Shown here piece after piece: positions 58,212 to 64,000 of a stretch of DNA of 64,000 nucleotides; positions within the stretch are counted from its first letter, which is position 1; every line of letters begins with the position of its first letter. The stretch covers positions 2,953 through 66,952 of the forward strand of contig CAXUDL010000027.1 in the NCBI GenBank assembly GCA_964249855.1, given 5' to 3'. A model generated the notes under the pieces. It was not told the DNA's origin. It saw only the letters and a list, made by a program, of their open reading frames with translations, and did no database searches. This DNA is from an uncultured Rhizobacter sp. (GTDB lineage: Bacteria > Pseudomonadota > Gammaproteobacteria > Burkholderiales > Burkholderiaceae_C). A program made the translations under genes and the position numbers.

Positions 58212-59747
58212 ATGACCGAACCGAATCCGCCGCCGCCGGCCGCGCCGCTGCTGCCCGCCGACCGCCCTGCCCTCGACGAGAACAAGCTGATCGCCGAGCG
58301 GCGCGAAAAGCTCGCGGCGATCCGGCGCCAGGGCATCGCCTTTCCGAACGACTTCAAGCCGACCGAGCACGCCGCCGAGCTGCAGCGGCGGCACGGTGAA
58401 GACGACAACGCCGAGCTCGAACCGCGCGCCCTTCGCGTGTCGCTGGCCGGCCGCCTGATGCTCAAGCGGGTGATGGGCAAGGCGAGCTTCGCGACGTTGC
58501 AGGACGGCTCGGGCGCGATCCAGCTCTTCGTCGCCCGCGACGCCGTCGGCGACGACGCATACGCCGCGTTCAAGCACTGGGACCTGGGCGACATCCTCGG
58601 CGCCGAGGGCACGCTGTTCAAGACGCGGACCGGCGAGCTGTCGGTGCGCGCGACGTCGTTGCGGCTGCTCACCAAGAGCCTGCGCCCGCTGCCCGACAAG
58701 TTCCACGGCATGGCCGACCAGGAGCAGAAGTACCGCCAGCGCTACGTCGACCTCATCACCGACGCCGATGCCCGCGCGCGCTTCGCCGCGCGCAGCAAGA
58801 CGCTCGCGTCGATCCGCCAGTTCATGGTCGAGCACCATTTCATGGAGGTCGAGACGCCGATGCTGCACCCGATCCCGGGCGGTGCGAACGCCAGGCCCTT
58901 CGTCACGCACCACAACGCCCTCGATCAGCAGATGTTCCTGCGCATCGCGCCGGAGCTCTACCTGAAGCGCCTGATCGTCGGCGGCTTCGAGCGCGTTTTC
59001 GAGATCAACCGGAGCTTCCGCAACGAGGGCATCTCGGTGCGGCACAACCCCGAGTTCACGATGATGGAGTTCTACGCCGCCTACTGGACCCATCACGACC
59101 TGATGGACTACACCGAGGAGGTGCTGCGCCACGCGGCCAGGACCGCGACGGGCTCGGCGGCGATCGTCTACGCCGGCCGGCCGGTCGATCTCGACAAGCG
59201 CTTCGCGCGGATGACGGTGCGCGAAGCGCTCGTCGTCCACGCCGGCCTCTCGGACGCGGACGCCGGCGATGCCGCAGTGCTGCGCGCGAAGCTCGCCGCG
59301 CTCGGCGAACAGGCGCCCGCGCACTGGACGCTCGCCGAGCTGCAGTTCGGCCTCTTCGAAGCCGCGGTCGAGGCGCAGCTCTGGCAGCCGACCTTCATCG
59401 TCGACTATCCGGTCGAGGTGTCGCCGCTCGCCCGCGCGTCCGACGCCGACCCGTCGGTCACCGAGCGCTTCGAACTCTTCATCGCCGGCCGCGAGGTGGC
59501 CAACGGCTTCTCCGAGCTCAACGATCCCGAGGACCAGGCAGCGCGCTTCCAGGCCCAGGCGGCGAACAAGGAGGCAGGCGACGAGGAAGCGATGTACTAC
59601 GACGCCGACTACATCCGCGCGCTCGAATACGGCATGCCGCCGACGGGCGGTTGCGGCATCGGCATCGACCGGCTGGTGATGCTGATCACCGATTCGGCGA
59701 GCATCCGCGACGTCATCCTGTTCCCGTCGCTGCGCAAGGAAGGCTGA
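58212..59747 (+). CDS. lysS: lysine--tRNA ligase (class II)
   Basis: [19 protein letters not shown]..., OB-fold, class II motifs FRNEG and [13 protein letters not shown] at 58212. Confidence 0.95.
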
Positions 59748-61500
59748 GCCGCTCCGCACGGGTTTCGCGCTCGACGAGCCAGCAGCCGGCGGCCTCGGCT
59801 TCCATCGGCCGGGCGAAGAAGTAGCCCTGCGCCTTGTCGCAGCCGAGCCGCTCGAGCTCGTCGGCCTGCCCCGGCGTCTCGATGCCTTCGGCGACGGTGC
59901 TCATGCCGAGGCTGCGCGCGACCTTCACCGTCGCTTCGACGAGCACGCGGTGGTGCGCGCTCGACTCGAGCTGCGAGACGAACGAACGGTCGATCTTGAC
60001 GACGTCGACCGGCAGCTGGTGCAGGCTCGACAGCGACGAGTAGCCGGTGCCGAAATCGTCGAGCGCGATCGTCACGCCGAGCGCCTTGAGCTCGTGCAGC
60101 CGGGCGCGGACGTTCTCGTCGCGGCCGGCGAGACTCTCGGTCACTTCGAGCTGCAGGCGTGCCGCCGGCAGGCCGCTCGCGAGCAGCGCCTCGCGCACGA
60201 TGTCGATGAAACGACCGTCGCCGAGCTGCGCCTTCGACACGTTGACCGACACCGTCTTCGGCGCCGCCGACCCGAGCACGCGCTGCCAGCGGGCGAGCTG
60301 CGTGCAGGCCTGCGCGAGGACGAAGCTGCCGAGCGACACGATCAGCCCGGTCTCCTCGGCGATCTCGATGAAGTCGATCGGCGGCACGATGCCGCGCACG
60401 CGATGCCGCCAGCGCACGAGCGCCTCGACGCCGGCGCACGCCGCGCGGTCGCCGCCGAAGGCGAGGATCGGCTGGTAGACGACGAACAGCTCGCCGGCCG
60501 CGATGCCGTCGCGCAGTTCGCTCTCGATGCTGCCGCGGCGTGCGGCACGGTCCTTCATCGCCGGGTGGAAGCGGCTCCAGCCGGCGCCGCCCGCACGCTT
60601 GGCCTCGTGCATCGCGATGTTCGCGCTCTGCAGCACCTCCTCGGGGTCGCCGACCGCGGCATCGCCCTCGACGACGCCGAGGCTCGCCGTCAGGTGCACG
60701 ATGTGCTCGCCGATCACGTAGGGCTCGGCGAGCACGTCGACGATGCGCCGGGCGATCGCGGCGGCGGCGGCGGCGTCCGCGAGGTCGCGCACCACGAGCA
60801 CGAACGCATCGGCGCCGAGGCGGGCCGCGGCCGGTTCGCCGGGCGCCTCCTCGCCGAGCGGTGCGTGCGGCCGCAGCGCCGCGTTGAGGCGCCTGCCGAC
60901 CGCCCGCAGCAGTTCGTCGCCGACGGTCGGGCCGAGCGTCACGTTGACGCGGTCGAAGCGGTCGCAGTCGACGACGATGACGGCGAAGCGCTCGACGGCG
61001 TCGTCGCGGCGCGCGTCGAGCGCCGCGGCGATCCGCTCGATCGCGACCAGGCGATTCGGCAGGCGCGTCAATGGGTCCTGGCGCGACGCATCCTTCCGCG
61101 TCGAGCGGATCTGCGCACGTTCGCGTTCGACGAGCAGGCTGACGTCGTTGATGCTCGCGACGAGCGTCTCGGCGTCGAGCTTGAAGAGGCTGAGCGCCAG
61201 CGTCCGCAGCCCGACCGCGCCGCGCGATTCGGGCGCGCGCACTTCGAAGCGCAGGTCGTCGCAGACGATGCCGTCGGATGCCGCCGTCGCCGCCGCACGC
61301 TCGCGCAGGTCCGGGGCGACGGCCTCGAGCACCTCGAAGAGGTTGAGCAGGTCGCCATTGGGCACGAGCGGCATCAGGAGCTGCGCCGACATCGGGTTGA
61401 TCATGGCGATCTCGCCCGAGGCGTCGGTCTGCAGCAGCCCGATCGGCGCGCGGTAGAGGAAGCGAAGCAGCGCGTCGTGCGGCGACGGATCCATCGTCAT
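59713..61500 (-). CDS. PAS-like / degenerate GGDEF (GADAF) / EAL protein, probable c-di-GMP phosphodiesterase
   Basis: [24 protein letters not shown]...; DPLTRLPNR...DCDRFDRVN...[11 protein letters not shown] (GGDEF replaced by GADAF). EAL domain has an intact [37 protein letters not shown]. Confidence 0.88.
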
Positions 61501-61504
61501 CGCC

Positions 61505-62299
61505 TCAGACGCGGTCCGGCGACTCGCCCGCCGCGGCGGCCGTGGCCTTGCGCAGGACGAAGCTGAACGCCGGCGCGTCGTCGCCCGGTTGCGCCGGATC
61601 GGCGGGCACGAGCAGCGCGCTGCCGTCGTGCGCCGAGCCGTCGGCGTGTTGGAAGCGGCCCTCCTCGAGCAGCCAGCCGTCGCGTCGCGCAGCGGCGAGC
61701 CGGGCGGCCACGCTGTCGTCGGGCGCCGCGCCGGCCGGGCCGAAGATCGCGATGCTGCGGCCGAGCGTGTCCGCGGCGGCGAAGCCGGTGACGTCGGCGA
61801 CGCCGGCATTCCAGCTGCGCACGCGGCCGGCGCGGTCGAGCGACATCAGCGCGTAGTCGCCGCGCCCGGAGACGAAGCTCGCGATCCAGTCGCGGCTCTG
61901 GCGCAGCGCAGCCTCGCGGCGCACGGCGAGCGTGACGTCGTCGATCACCGCCATCAGCCGCGTCGCGTCGAGCTTGAGGAGCGTCAGCGAGAGCGTCTGC
62001 ACGCGCGCGTCGCGGCCCTCGGTCGAGACCTGCAGCGTCAGGTTGTCGCAGACCCTGCCGTGCGGCAGCGCGTAGGCGTCCGCCTGCAGGCGCAGATCCG
62101 GTGCGACCGGCAGCAGCGCGTCGAACAGGTTGACCAGCCCCGAATCGCCCGCGAGCGGCAGCAGCAGCTGCGCAGCCATCGGGTTGAGCAGCAGGATCTC
62201 GCCGTCGCTCGCCGCCTGGACGAGGCCGATCGGCGCGAGGTAGAGGAATTGCGTCAGCGACTCGAGTTCGTGCTCTGCCGTGCCGGGCTGGAGGTCCAT
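61505..62299 (-). CDS. output-less PAS-PAS sensor protein
   Basis: The N-terminal domain is a paralog of the N-terminus of the GGDEF/EAL protein. The second PAS is YALMSLDRAGRVRSWNAGVADVTGFAAADTLGRSI. 4-nt gap to the next gene. Confidence 0.75.
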   Translation of the reverse strand: MDLQPGTAEHELESLTQFLYLAPIGLVQAASDGEILLLNPMAAQLLLPLAGDSGLVNLFDALLPVAPDLRLQADAYALPHGRVCDNLTLQVSTEGRDARVQTLSLTLLKLDATRLMAVIDDVTLAVRREAALRQSRDWIASFVSGRGDYALMSLDRAGRVRSWNAGVADVTGFAAADTLGRSIAIFGPAGAAPDDSVAARLAAARRDGWLLEEGRFQHADGSAHDGSALLVPADPAQPGDDAPAFSFVLRKATAAAAGESPDRV

Positions 62300-62306
62300 G
62301 CCGGAC

Positions 62307-62699
62307 TCAGACCCGCCGCAGGACGAGCACGAAGCGCGTCGCGCCGCCGGGTGCGGCGAGCAGCCGCAGCTTCACCTTGACGGGACGCATCCGCAACGTC
62401 AGCACGTAGTCGATCGTCGCGTCGAGCGGCGCGGCGTCGACGGCAGCGTCCTCGAAGCGCTGGGCGACGAGGAAGTTGTTCATGCAAGGCGCGACGGTCG
62501 TGAACAGCGGATGGCCGACCACACGTTCGGTCGACAGGCCGGCGCACTGCGATTCGTAGCGGTTGTAGCGGCAGACGAGGCCGTCGGCGTCGAAGCCGAT
62601 CACGCCGAAGTCGAGCGCATCGAGCTCTTCGTCGGTGGCGCGGGCGAGCGCGGGCAGCAGGTCGGCGTCGGTGAAGGCGAGGGACAGCAATGGAGTCAT
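62307..62699 (-). CDS. pyp: photoactive yellow protein (PYP) homolog
   Basis: 130 aa alignable end to end with Halorhodospira halophila PYP (from memory): [24 protein letters not shown] / [33 protein letters not shown] / KDVAPCTDS (chromophore Cys); [11 protein letters not shown]...RFVLVLRRV / MTPTKVKVHMK...YWVFVKRV. Confidence 0.9.
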   Translation of the reverse strand: [130 protein letters not shown]

Positions 62700-62866
62700 G
62701 ACAGCTTTCTCGGCGGCCGCCGGCGAGGCGGGCGGCGCCAGAAGTCGATGGGGGCGGCAGGTGCGTGCAAGGCTATCGGCGCGCCGCGCGGCGACTTGAA
62801 GCCCGCGTGCACATGCCGGCGCGTCGGCCGCCCGGCCGCGGCTGCGGCTCGCTCACGGCGAGCCGG

Positions 62867-64000
62867 TCAGCCGGCGACCGTTCCCTGGCCGAAGCGGACG
62901 CGGCAGCCGCCGTCGGCATCGAGGTCGGTCTGCCACACCAGCACGGCGCGCCCATCGACCGACGGCAGCAGCGACGTGCTGTAGTTCCAGCACCAGTTCG
63001 ACACGGTCGGCGCATCGGCGAGCCCGACGGGCATCGCGACGCGCGTCCATGCACCCGCGCCTTCGCGCCTGTCGTTGACGAGCATCGTCCGCCCGCTGGC
63101 CGCCACGTCGGTCACGCCCGACGCCGACGTGAACAGCTGCCCGGCCAGCACCAGGCGGCCGTCGGCGCTTCCGGGGAACGGCGTCCAGACGAGCGTCGGC
63201 GTGTGGCGGAAGAAGCTGCCGTCTGCCGTCTCGGGACGCGTGCCCATGTCGCCAGCCGGTCCCCACGCGAGCCCGTCGTCCGACATCTTGACGTGGGCGG
63301 CGCAATCGAGCCGAGCGGTGCTGCACGTCTCGAAGCTCATCGCATACCGCCCGCTCGGCAGCTTCGCCACGTTGGCCATGCCGGGGCGGTCCGCTTGATC
63401 GGCGCCCGCGACGATGGTGACCGGCGCCGTCCACTGCACGCCGTCGAGCGTCTTCGTCAGCCTGAGCACCTGCGAAGCCCCGTGAACGGTCTCGTCCGAA
63501 TAGATGCAGGCGAGCGCGCCGTCGCCGGCGACGAAGAACACCGGCTCCCAGACGCCCGTGCCGGCCTCGCCGGGCACGCGCGGCAGTGCGGACGCGCCGC
63601 AGAGCGCCTGGCCCAGCCGCTGGAACGACCGCCCCGCGTCGCTGCTCACGTAGATGCGGTTCTGCATGAAGGTGCCGGCCGAGTCGTGGCCGACCGACAC
63701 CGCGACCACCAGCATGCCGGTCGCGAGGACGCCGACCGGCTGCGGCAGCTCGTACACCGAGCCGCAGCACACGCCCTTGTCGAAGTCGGGATCGTCGATC
63801 GAGCCGCGGCGCGAGAAGGTCGCGCCCTGGTCGTCGCTGACGTGGACTCCGGGCTTCCAACGACCGTCGACTCTTTCGGTCACGGTGCCGAGGACGAGTC
63901 CGTTCTGCGTCCGGTCGGCCTGATGCGCCAGCCGCACGAGACGGGGGTAGGTGCCCCAGTCGGACTGCAACAGCGCGCCGACGACGGTGGCCGGCGCGAC
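62867..64000 (-). CDS. BNR/Asp-box repeat protein of the sialidase (beta-propeller glycosidase) fold; N-terminus probably beyond the window
   Basis: Three Asp-boxes read in the translation: SDDQGATF, SSDAGRSF, SDDGLAWG. The frame is still open at base 64000; the track start at 63970 is a TTG. Confidence 0.65.
   Translation of the reverse strand, partial: VAPATVVGALLQSDWGTYPRLVRLAHQADRTQNGLVLGTVTERVDGRWKPGVHVSDDQGATFSRRGSIDDPDFDKGVCCGSVYELPQPVGVLATGMLVVAVSVGHDSAGTFMQNRIYVSSDAGRSFQRLGQALCGASALPRVPGEAGTGVWEPVFFVAGDGALACIYSDETVHGASQVLRLTKTLDGVQWTAPVTIVAGADQADRPGMANVAKLPSGRYAMSFETCSTARLDCAAHVKMSDDGLAWGPAGDMGTRPETADGSFFRHTPTLVWTPFPGSADGRLVLAGQLFTSASGVTDVAASGRTMLVNDRREGAGAWTRVAMPVGLADAPTVSNWCWNYSTSLLPSVDGRAVLVWQTDLDADGGCRVRFGQGTVAG

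Follow-up and report, generated by a model that had tools for sequence, protein, structure and literature searches.

A cassette of three genes headed by a stand-alone photoactive yellow protein (PYP) lies on the minus strand of the stretch of DNA analysed here, 64 kb of contig CAXUDL010000027.1 from an uncultured Rhizobacter sp. (hereafter the window; G+C about 72%). With a probability that we put at roughly 60%, the cassette is a module connecting blue light to cyclic di-GMP (c-di-GMP), of the type that accompanies clade C PYPs in the Burkholderiales, in which PYP would act via effectors bearing a particular N-terminal domain, here called PAS*. What the comparison adds is that both partner proteins of the cassette carry PAS* and that, across other genomes, PAS* and PYP are reciprocally linked.

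The three open reading frames (ORFs) are intact and run head to tail at the coordinates noted previously; all positions given for the cassette refer to the minus strand. The pyp gene (62307..62699, with its TGA stop codon at 62307-62309) encodes a stand-alone PYP of 130 residues that belongs to clade C, the Burkholderiales type. Gene 2 (61505..62299, ATG at 62299) encodes a PAS*-PAS protein of 264 residues, and gene 3 (59713..61500) a PAS*-GGDEF-EAL protein with a degenerate GGDEF domain, of 595 residues or, if translation begins at the ATG at 61494, of 593. The tight spacing described in the original prediction is confirmed for the gap of 7 nucleotides between the pyp stop codon and the gene 2 ATG (GTCCGGC on the coding strand), while the second gap measures 4 nucleotides with the gene 3 start at ATG 61500 or 10 with the start at ATG 61494. 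The latter has the sequence GAGG around 8 nucleotides upstream, better spaced than for ATG 61500, and is also the start of an identical 593-residue protein in a public record (P0123).

The first 135 or so residues of the gene 2 and gene 3 products are 51% identical, and comparison of the respective sets of orthologs with hhalign gives a probability of 100% and an E-value of 2.5e-60. PAS* spans residues 1-135 of each protein, corresponding to positions 61895..62299 in gene 2 and 61096..61500 in gene 3. The paralogy of the two N-terminal domains had been missed in the original prediction, in which the gene 2 product was described simply as a PAS-PAS protein. The second of these PAS domains is recognised by Pfam and NCBIfam; the first, PAS*, matches nothing in Pfam even at E<=10 and can be called PAS by virtue of the predicted fold of its gene 3 paralog. 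Equally, a PAS* profile searched against PDB sequences gave no match, the best E-value being 0.14.

The AlphaFold2 model of the gene 3 PAS* (pLDDT 84.4, pTM 0.74) has the topology H-EE-HHH-EEE-H, in which an N-cap helix and two strands are followed by three short helices, then by three long strands and finally by a helix at the C terminus. Searched with Foldseek, it retrieves only PAS domains, with probabilities of about 1.0 and TM-scores of 0.4-0.55 (Rv1364c, FixL, DosP, LOV and PYP among them). PAS* is thus predicted, by structure modelling only, to adopt a PAS fold, the gene 2 copy being assigned by homology to the gene 3 copy. Similarity of short stretches (LF..VAPD in PAS* and LFT.VAPC in PYP) raised the question of whether PAS* is a copy of PYP that lacks the Cys. 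This was rejected at the sequence level, hhalign giving probabilities of only around 2% for PAS* against either PYP or the second PAS domain. Foldseek likewise ranks generic PAS domains above PYP.

A word-index homolog search with the isolated PAS* sequence found only two proteins. The exhaustive phmmer search, on the other hand, retrieved 568 representative proteins, among which PAS* is almost always located at residues ~5-135. The domain contains a near-invariant Cys in its predicted G-beta strand, within the motif V/I-C-D/E: this is Cys80 in gene 3 (nucleotides 61261-61263) and Cys84 in gene 2. PAS* copies linked to GGDEF/EAL and HisKA_3 domains keep the residue, whereas those of the tandem PAS* kinase described below do not. 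It may mark a site for a cofactor or for redox chemistry.

The pairing of PYP and PAS* was assessed from both directions. The window PYP has 4067 relatives in a protein collection clustered at 90%, and clade-specific motifs find PYP in 416 species-representative genomes, nearly all of them from the Burkholderiales; genera with a clade C PYP include Massilia, Aquincola, Rubrivivax, Paucibacter, Methyloversatilis, Variovorax, Hydrogenophaga and Piscinibacter. Loci were taken from the best 80 of each scan and so represent the closest relatives. In each of the 83 genome loci examined, the gene downstream of PYP is on the same strand, lies within about 0-150 nucleotides of it and encodes a product that begins with PAS*. 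In the opposite direction, metagenomes were scanned with PAS* as the sole query, which gave 521 relatives, and 79 loci were kept. A clade C PYP lies just upstream in 73 of the 73 informative loci, the other six beginning too near to, or inside, gene A, as the first partner gene of the family is called here (gene 2 in the window; gene B is the second, gene 3 in the window). The possibility that the adjacency of pyp and its partners is peculiar to one strain, raised with the original prediction, is thereby refuted.

The cassette can be defined as a PYP gene followed directly, on its own strand, by one or two PAS*-first genes, an arrangement that is also found in the window. Flanking genes vary among the six contexts annotated (L001, L002, L084, L086, L169 and L172) and therefore only the cassette is conserved there. 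Within it, the most common layout among the 76 genome loci having enough downstream sequence, seen in 59, comprises PYP, a PAS*-PAS-GGDEF protein of ~440 residues with an intact GGEEF motif, and a PAS*-GGDEF-EAL protein of ~590 residues in which GGDEF, EALVR and DDFGTG are mostly intact. Eleven loci have PYP with the PAS*-GGDEF-EAL protein only and four have PYP with the cyclase only. The remaining two are a locus resembling the window (L030), where PYP precedes a short gene A without GGDEF and a PAS*-GGDEF-EAL gene, and one in which PYP accompanies a single PAS*-PAS-GGDEF-EAL chain. Many gene B orthologs (P0128, P0130 and others) are longer, at ~900 residues, with an extra C-terminal PAS_7-GGDEF region.

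PYP is also present at every exceptional PAS* architecture that was checked. In P0385, a complete ORF of 558 residues, the two are fused in a single PYP-PAS*-PAS-GGDEF chain. In P0314, PAS* is C-terminal to a HisKA_3 kinase and a 130-residue PYP is divergently adjacent, as seen in three assemblies. P0248 is a hybrid kinase, PAS*-PAS*-HisKA-HATPase-REC, encoded 44 nucleotides after PYP, and in P0271, whose gene comes after those for PYP and gene A, the domain order is bacteriophytochrome-PAS-GGDEF-PAS*-GGDEF-EAL. Since the fusion, the kinases and the bacteriophytochrome-containing partner all have their PYP, PAS* tracks PYP across four output classes.

Histidine kinases of these two types, one a HisKA_3 kinase with PAS* at its C terminus and the other a hybrid kinase with tandem N-terminal PAS*, lie beside clade C-like PYPs at loci L169 (4435-6479) and L172 (4670-7019), where one kinase-associated PYP has VAQC in place of VAPC. 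These cases suggest PYP-to-two-component signalling through PAS*.

The identification of the 130-residue ORF as a PYP, made originally from the sequence alone, stands. In a profile search its product matches TIGR02373 (photo_yellow) over essentially its full length, residues 8-128, with an E-value of 9e-23 and a score of 80.6 bits, albeit below the equivalog cut-off of 143.05 bits. That model recovers only around 20% of PYP homologs, according to the survey by Xing, Gumerov and Zhulin (2022; PMC9664959). A phmmer search of the PDB matched only PYP and Ppr chains (E-values from 3e-18 to 1e-14), while the best Pfam match is to PAS_4. The AlphaFold2 model (pLDDT 85.8, pTM 0.81) contains the PYP fold with both its PAS core and its two-helix N-terminal cap. 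It superimposes on PYP crystal structures with TM-scores of 0.85-0.89 (root-mean-square deviation 1.9 A over ~125 columns for the best), and the top 40 Foldseek matches are all PYP or PYP-derived, namely PYP, Ppr-PYP and the engineered FAST and nanoFAST.

The product is ~31% identical to Halorhodospira halophila PYP and all the sequence motifs originally cited are present in the roles then ascribed to them. YNRYE at residues 45-49 (nucleotides 62553-62567) supplies Y45 and E49, equivalent to Tyr42 and Glu46, and VAPC at residues 69-72 (62484-62495) supplies C72, equivalent to the chromophore-binding Cys69. The VKVKL and VLVLRRV motifs are found, and the Met100 equivalent is kept as M104. Y45, E49 and C72 are invariant in alignments of 50 homologs. 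Compared with the H. halophila protein, Thr50 is replaced by Ala and Arg52 by Leu. However, these are no warning sign, since the product carries the equivalents of S47, A50, L52 and T97 and so equals the PYP-family consensus of Ser47, Ala50, Leu52 and Thr97 given by Dohmen (2025; PMC12826048).

Further differences from H. halophila PYP are the replacement of F92 by I, of F96 by L and of W119 by F/Y. In Xing 2022, clade C PYPs are described as having lost Phe92, Phe96 and Trp119 while conserving Met100, as mostly of Burkholderiales and as being of the PAS_4 type. Each of these features is seen in the window protein, in its residues, its PAS_4 match and its Burkholderiales homologs, those of Aquincola, Rhizobacter, Massilia and Rubrivivax among them. 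On its sequence and predicted structure, the pyp product is therefore assigned as a genuine PYP-family protein of clade C.

Chromophore supply was considered with respect to genes encoding the enzymes TAL and pCL. A pCL-like AMP-ligase, of a distinct family, adjoins pyp in 25 of 87 related genome loci, and TAL-like lyases are adjacent in five. In Massilia, the pCL-like ligase gene is divergent from pyp, and in Methyloversatilis a TAL-like aromatic amino-acid lyase (Pfam score 524 bits), the ligase and pyp follow one another on one strand. Because pCL-like and TAL-like genes adjoin pyp in this clade, the gene neighbourhoods support the use of a hydroxycinnamate chromophore by clade C. A nearby pCL is reported for only ~30% of pyp genes in any clade (PMC9664959).

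Some genomes have, within a few kb of the clade C cassette, a further PYP paralog that is divergent and shares 35-41% identity with the window PYP, as seen at L029 (at ~12.8 kb), L063, L072 (at ~2.3 kb), L156 and L158. Its neighbours in L029, L072, L156 and L158 are TAL-like and pCL-like genes; the one such match in L063 was to a pCL-like ligase.

Turning to the downstream proteins, the conventional PAS domain of gene 2 (residues 150-227, positions 61619..61852; Pfam PAS/PAS_4, TIGR00229) is the only one in that protein seen by Pfam or NCBIfam. Gene 2 is an ortholog of the PAS*-PAS-GGDEF diguanylate cyclase of the family (~440 residues) from which the whole GGDEF domain is absent: its alignment with gene A orthologs, which carry GGEEF, spans PAS* and the second PAS domain and ends 14 residues past the last PAS strand. 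The nearest relatives of the window PYP (77-79% identity) retain a full cyclase of 444-471 residues as first partner.

Gene 3 matches GGDEF with 99 bits (60589..61080) and EAL with 239 bits (59716..60546) in Pfam, bearing out its earlier description as a GADAF-EAL protein. GADAF, at residues 229-233 (60802-60816), stands in place of the GG(D/E)EF of an intact active-site motif. Gene B orthologs have a mostly intact GGDEF, with GADEF and GSDEF as minor variants, and the gene 3 GGDEF domain is predicted to be catalytically dead. The EAL domain contains all of its catalytic motifs: EALVR (359-363), VNVS (419-422), EVTES (452-456), DDFGTG (481-486), KIDRSF (502-507), AEGIET (537-542) and QGYFF (558-562). 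With this active-type EAL signature, gene 3 is predicted to encode a c-di-GMP phosphodiesterase.

The window holds a derived variant of the cassette. Its cyclase-less three-gene layout recurs in only one of the 76 genome loci, L030, which has independently a short gene A without GGDEF, and in none of 41 metagenome loci. We also counted, among the positions that 90% or more of the orthologs share, those at which the window residues differ. In PAS* the deviations number 4 of 51 for gene 2 (ortholog maximum 8, median 1) and 5 of 34 for gene 3 (maximum 5, median 0), not exceeding the ortholog maximum in either case, yet above the median. The excess of substitutions at conserved sites is found in the second PAS domain of gene 2 (9 of 36, where none of 67 orthologs has more than 5) and in the gene 3 GGDEF (8 of 44; maximum 4). 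The EAL domain has 11 of 128 (maximum 10), all outside the catalytic motifs. Read in this way, the sequences indicate that the window lineage has shed both cyclase functions while keeping PYP, both copies of PAS* and the phosphodiesterase.

The mechanism that we favour begins with PYP, carrying p-coumaric acid on Cys72, as the photoreceptor. Photoisomerisation would produce a PYP signalling state with altered association with the N-terminal PAS* of the putatively co-transcribed proteins, and the changed association would in turn alter the activity of the output domains. In the usual cassette, PAS* is attached both to a diguanylate cyclase (PAS*-PAS-GGEEF) and to a GGDEF-EAL protein, and therefore light could shift the balance between c-di-GMP synthesis and hydrolysis. 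The window version would consist of a light-controlled EAL phosphodiesterase together with an output-less PAS*-PAS protein, the latter most plausibly acting as a competitor for PYP or an adaptor, or else pairing with the phosphodiesterase through the PAS* domains of the two.

A bolder form of the same scheme, which we offer tentatively and would not ourselves back at even odds, is that PAS* is a dedicated, portable receiver domain on which stand-alone PYPs dock, serving cyclase, phosphodiesterase and histidine kinase outputs alike, and that the gene 2 protein is a light-dependent adaptor or anti-adaptor competing with the EAL enzyme for PYP. If this were true, the cassette would form a three-protein partner-switching circuit for c-di-GMP and PAS* would mark the long-sought direct partners of stand-alone PYPs.

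A number of points weigh against a PYP that signals through PAS*. The contact between the two is deduced from co-occurrence, portability and one fusion, and that fusion is one single metagenomic ORF. We infer, too, both the sign of the regulation by PYP and its loading with chromophore. Remote PAS* proteins without PYP could exist beyond the closest relatives considered here. In a mirror-tree comparison, PYP and PAS* gave Spearman coefficients of 0.45-0.53 against 0.35-0.56 for other domains, no signal above the others, and PAS* reached 0.64-0.76 with the other domains of the partners. No TAL or pCL gene was found in the window by scans for MIO and AMP-ligase motifs or by tblastn with clade-associated TAL and pCL proteins. 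Decay could lie behind the excess substitutions in the second PAS of the gene 2 product and in the gene 3 GGDEF domain. Finally, no clade C PYP is biochemically characterised according to PMC9664959, and none of the 12 characterised PYPs listed in PMC12826048 is from the Burkholderiales.

Some of these points are also what alternative explanations would lead one to expect. The cassette might be co-regulated without any physical relay, PAS* being an ordinary dimerisation or ligand-sensing PAS domain, possibly responding to redox through its Cys, and PYP signalling elsewhere or only tuning expression. Through PAS*, the cyclase and the phosphodiesterase would then form homodimers or pair with one another. 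Its presence on both partners at 51% identity is as expected of a shared dimerisation module, and the near-invariant Cys and the stronger mirror-tree co-variation of PAS* with other partner domains than with PYP are in keeping with such a role. We nevertheless regard this as unlikely given that the co-occurrence of PYP and PAS* is reciprocal and near-obligate, that it persists when the output is a histidine kinase and that a PYP-PAS* fusion exists; nor is the Cys kept in the kinase-linked tandem copies. A different possibility is that the module is decaying or repurposed in this genome, with PYP perhaps an apo-protein incapable of acting as a light switch and gene 3 a constitutive or otherwise regulated phosphodiesterase. 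The loss of GGDEF from gene 2, the predicted death of that in gene 3, the rarity of the layout, the highest numbers of deviations in the second PAS and GGDEF domains and the lack of TAL and pCL matches in the window would all fit. Against it are the three intact and tightly spaced ORFs, the intact PYP pocket residues and EAL catalytic motifs, and PAS* deviations that stay within the ortholog maximum, while L030 suggests the short gene A architecture to be viable and a nearby pCL is the exception for pyp genes of any clade. We judge decay distinctly improbable.

Least probable of all in our estimation, and very much so, is that clade C PYP is no p-coumarate photoreceptor but a PAS protein sensing some other small molecule, or redox via its Cys, and relaying to c-di-GMP enzymes. 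The sub-threshold TIGR02373 score and the loss of Phe92, Phe96 and Trp119 in a clade with no characterised member speak for it, as does the shift from light to redox sensing proposed in Xing 2022 for some other homologs, the methylobacterial Ppr-PYPs without Cys69. On the other side, the equivalents of Tyr42, Glu46, Cys69 and Met100 are invariant or conserved, TAL-like or pCL-like genes lie adjacent in 25 of the 87 clade C loci and the fold, N-terminal cap included, matches PYP. Signalling from PYP through PAS* thus remains our preferred explanation of the cassette.

PYP is among the most intensively studied photoreceptors in biophysics. Even so, signal relay from single-domain PYPs is still called an important gap (PMC12826048). 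The original prediction's statement that the partner of single-domain PYPs is undefined is only roughly true, since the interaction of Rc-PYP with a PYP-binding protein (PBP) has been studied (bioRxiv 10.1101/2021.06.01.446672) and the PYP of Idiomarina loihiensis has been linked to biofilm. Its proposal of a three-component switch from blue light to c-di-GMP holds insofar as PYP is indeed encoded with a c-di-GMP enzyme; the idea was already published, though, and the layout is a rare derived form. As set out in Xing 2022 (Fig. 4B/6D), clade C PYPs often adjoin GGDEF proteins, with many GGDEF/EAL genes nearby that PYP was proposed to modulate. Dohmen 2025 lists 113 predicted pyp operons, with GGDEF in 29, EAL in 22 and HisKA/HATPase in 17, and calls them testable hypotheses. 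Control of adjacent GGDEF/EAL proteins by clade C pyp is therefore an established proposal, and the window is a rare cyclase-less example of a known uncharacterised class. A literature search retrieved no biochemical studies of clade C PYPs or of their partners. The N-terminal PAS* shared by the partners is not mentioned in the parts of Xing 2022 and Dohmen 2025 available, but the review of PYP gene context by Meyer et al. (2012) could already mention it.

Comparison with related systems brings out what is particular to the window. It shares with the published clade C systems (PMC9664959 and PMC12826048) the PYP clade, the GGDEF/EAL neighbourhood and the proposed light control of c-di-GMP or biofilm, but its first partner is without a cyclase domain and its second has GADAF. 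The I. loihiensis PYP (van der Horst et al. 2009, as cited in PMC9664959) is similarly stand-alone and beside a GGDEF gene, and light affects biofilm there; however, it is a clade A PYP with a cyclase output, as opposed to the phosphodiesterase of the window. The prototype H. halophila PYP, from a pyp-pCL-TAL operon, resembles the window protein in fold, in its equivalents of Tyr42, Glu46, Cys69 and Met100 and in the N-terminal cap. It differs in sequence (T50A and R52L among the changes), in the genes alongside, pCL and TAL being absent from the window, and in having phototaxis as output.

In Ppd of Thermochromatium tepidum (PYP-bacteriophytochrome-GGDEF-EAL) and Ppr (PYP-bacteriophytochrome-histidine kinase), PYP likewise feeds GGDEF/EAL or kinase outputs, and the relatives of the window cassette include both kinase partners and a gene B fused behind a bacteriophytochrome-PAS-GGDEF module (L174, 3229-6875). 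By analogy, this last protein might be viewed as part of a split analogue of Ppd, combining red and blue light inputs. Ppd and Ppr are nevertheless single polypeptides with a clade A PYP, whereas the window PYP is separate and the link would be a separate PAS*.

Short BLUF and LOV proteins also act on separate effectors, as in PapB-PapA of Rhodopseudomonas palustris, a split BLUF-EAL blue-light system. There, a small stand-alone blue-light sensor is encoded beside a c-di-GMP phosphodiesterase and binds it; the window would work likewise, although with a photoreceptor of another family and p-coumarate rather than flavin. To our knowledge, no dedicated receiver PAS domain is involved in the split BLUF and LOV systems. 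PAS*, at ~130 residues, offers a concrete small target for binding, structural and optogenetic work, and the cyclase-less version in the window is a simple system, comprising PYP, one adaptor-like protein and one phosphodiesterase.

Upstream of the cassette is an intergenic region of 167 nucleotides (62700..62866, minus strand), presumably containing its promoter. It follows a BNR-like gene, directly after which is a GC-rich hairpin with a perfect 8-bp stem (62845-62865). A sequence scan around the cassette found no sigma-70 promoter consensus or terminator-like sites, and no Rfam family was matched in a scan of 59-64 kb. The upstream gene itself (62867-63970, also on the minus strand) encodes 367 residues whose one match, to BNR_2 (sialidase-like repeat), is weak and falls short of the Pfam cut-off, and is not conserved beside pyp in other genomes. 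At the other end, the 3' end of gene 3 overlaps by 35 nucleotides (59713-59747) the 3' end of the convergent gene of a class II tRNA synthetase of the Lys/Asp/Asn type (approximately 58215-59747, plus strand), and no terminator-like structure was found between the two.

Next to the synthetase gene and the cassette lies a region of about 27 kb (30000-57600) of polysaccharide or O-antigen biosynthesis type. It encodes an NAD-dependent epimerase/dehydratase (best Pfam match GDP_Man_Dehyd), C-methyltransferases and glycosyltransferases of the GT2, GT4 and GT9 families, as well as Wzx-like flippases, a TylF-type O-methyltransferase and a Polysacc_synt_2 protein. The part between 30 and 45 kb has a G+C content of 60-67%, lower than the 72% of the window, which suggests that it was horizontally acquired. 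A functional tie between the polysaccharide region and control by c-di-GMP is conceivable.

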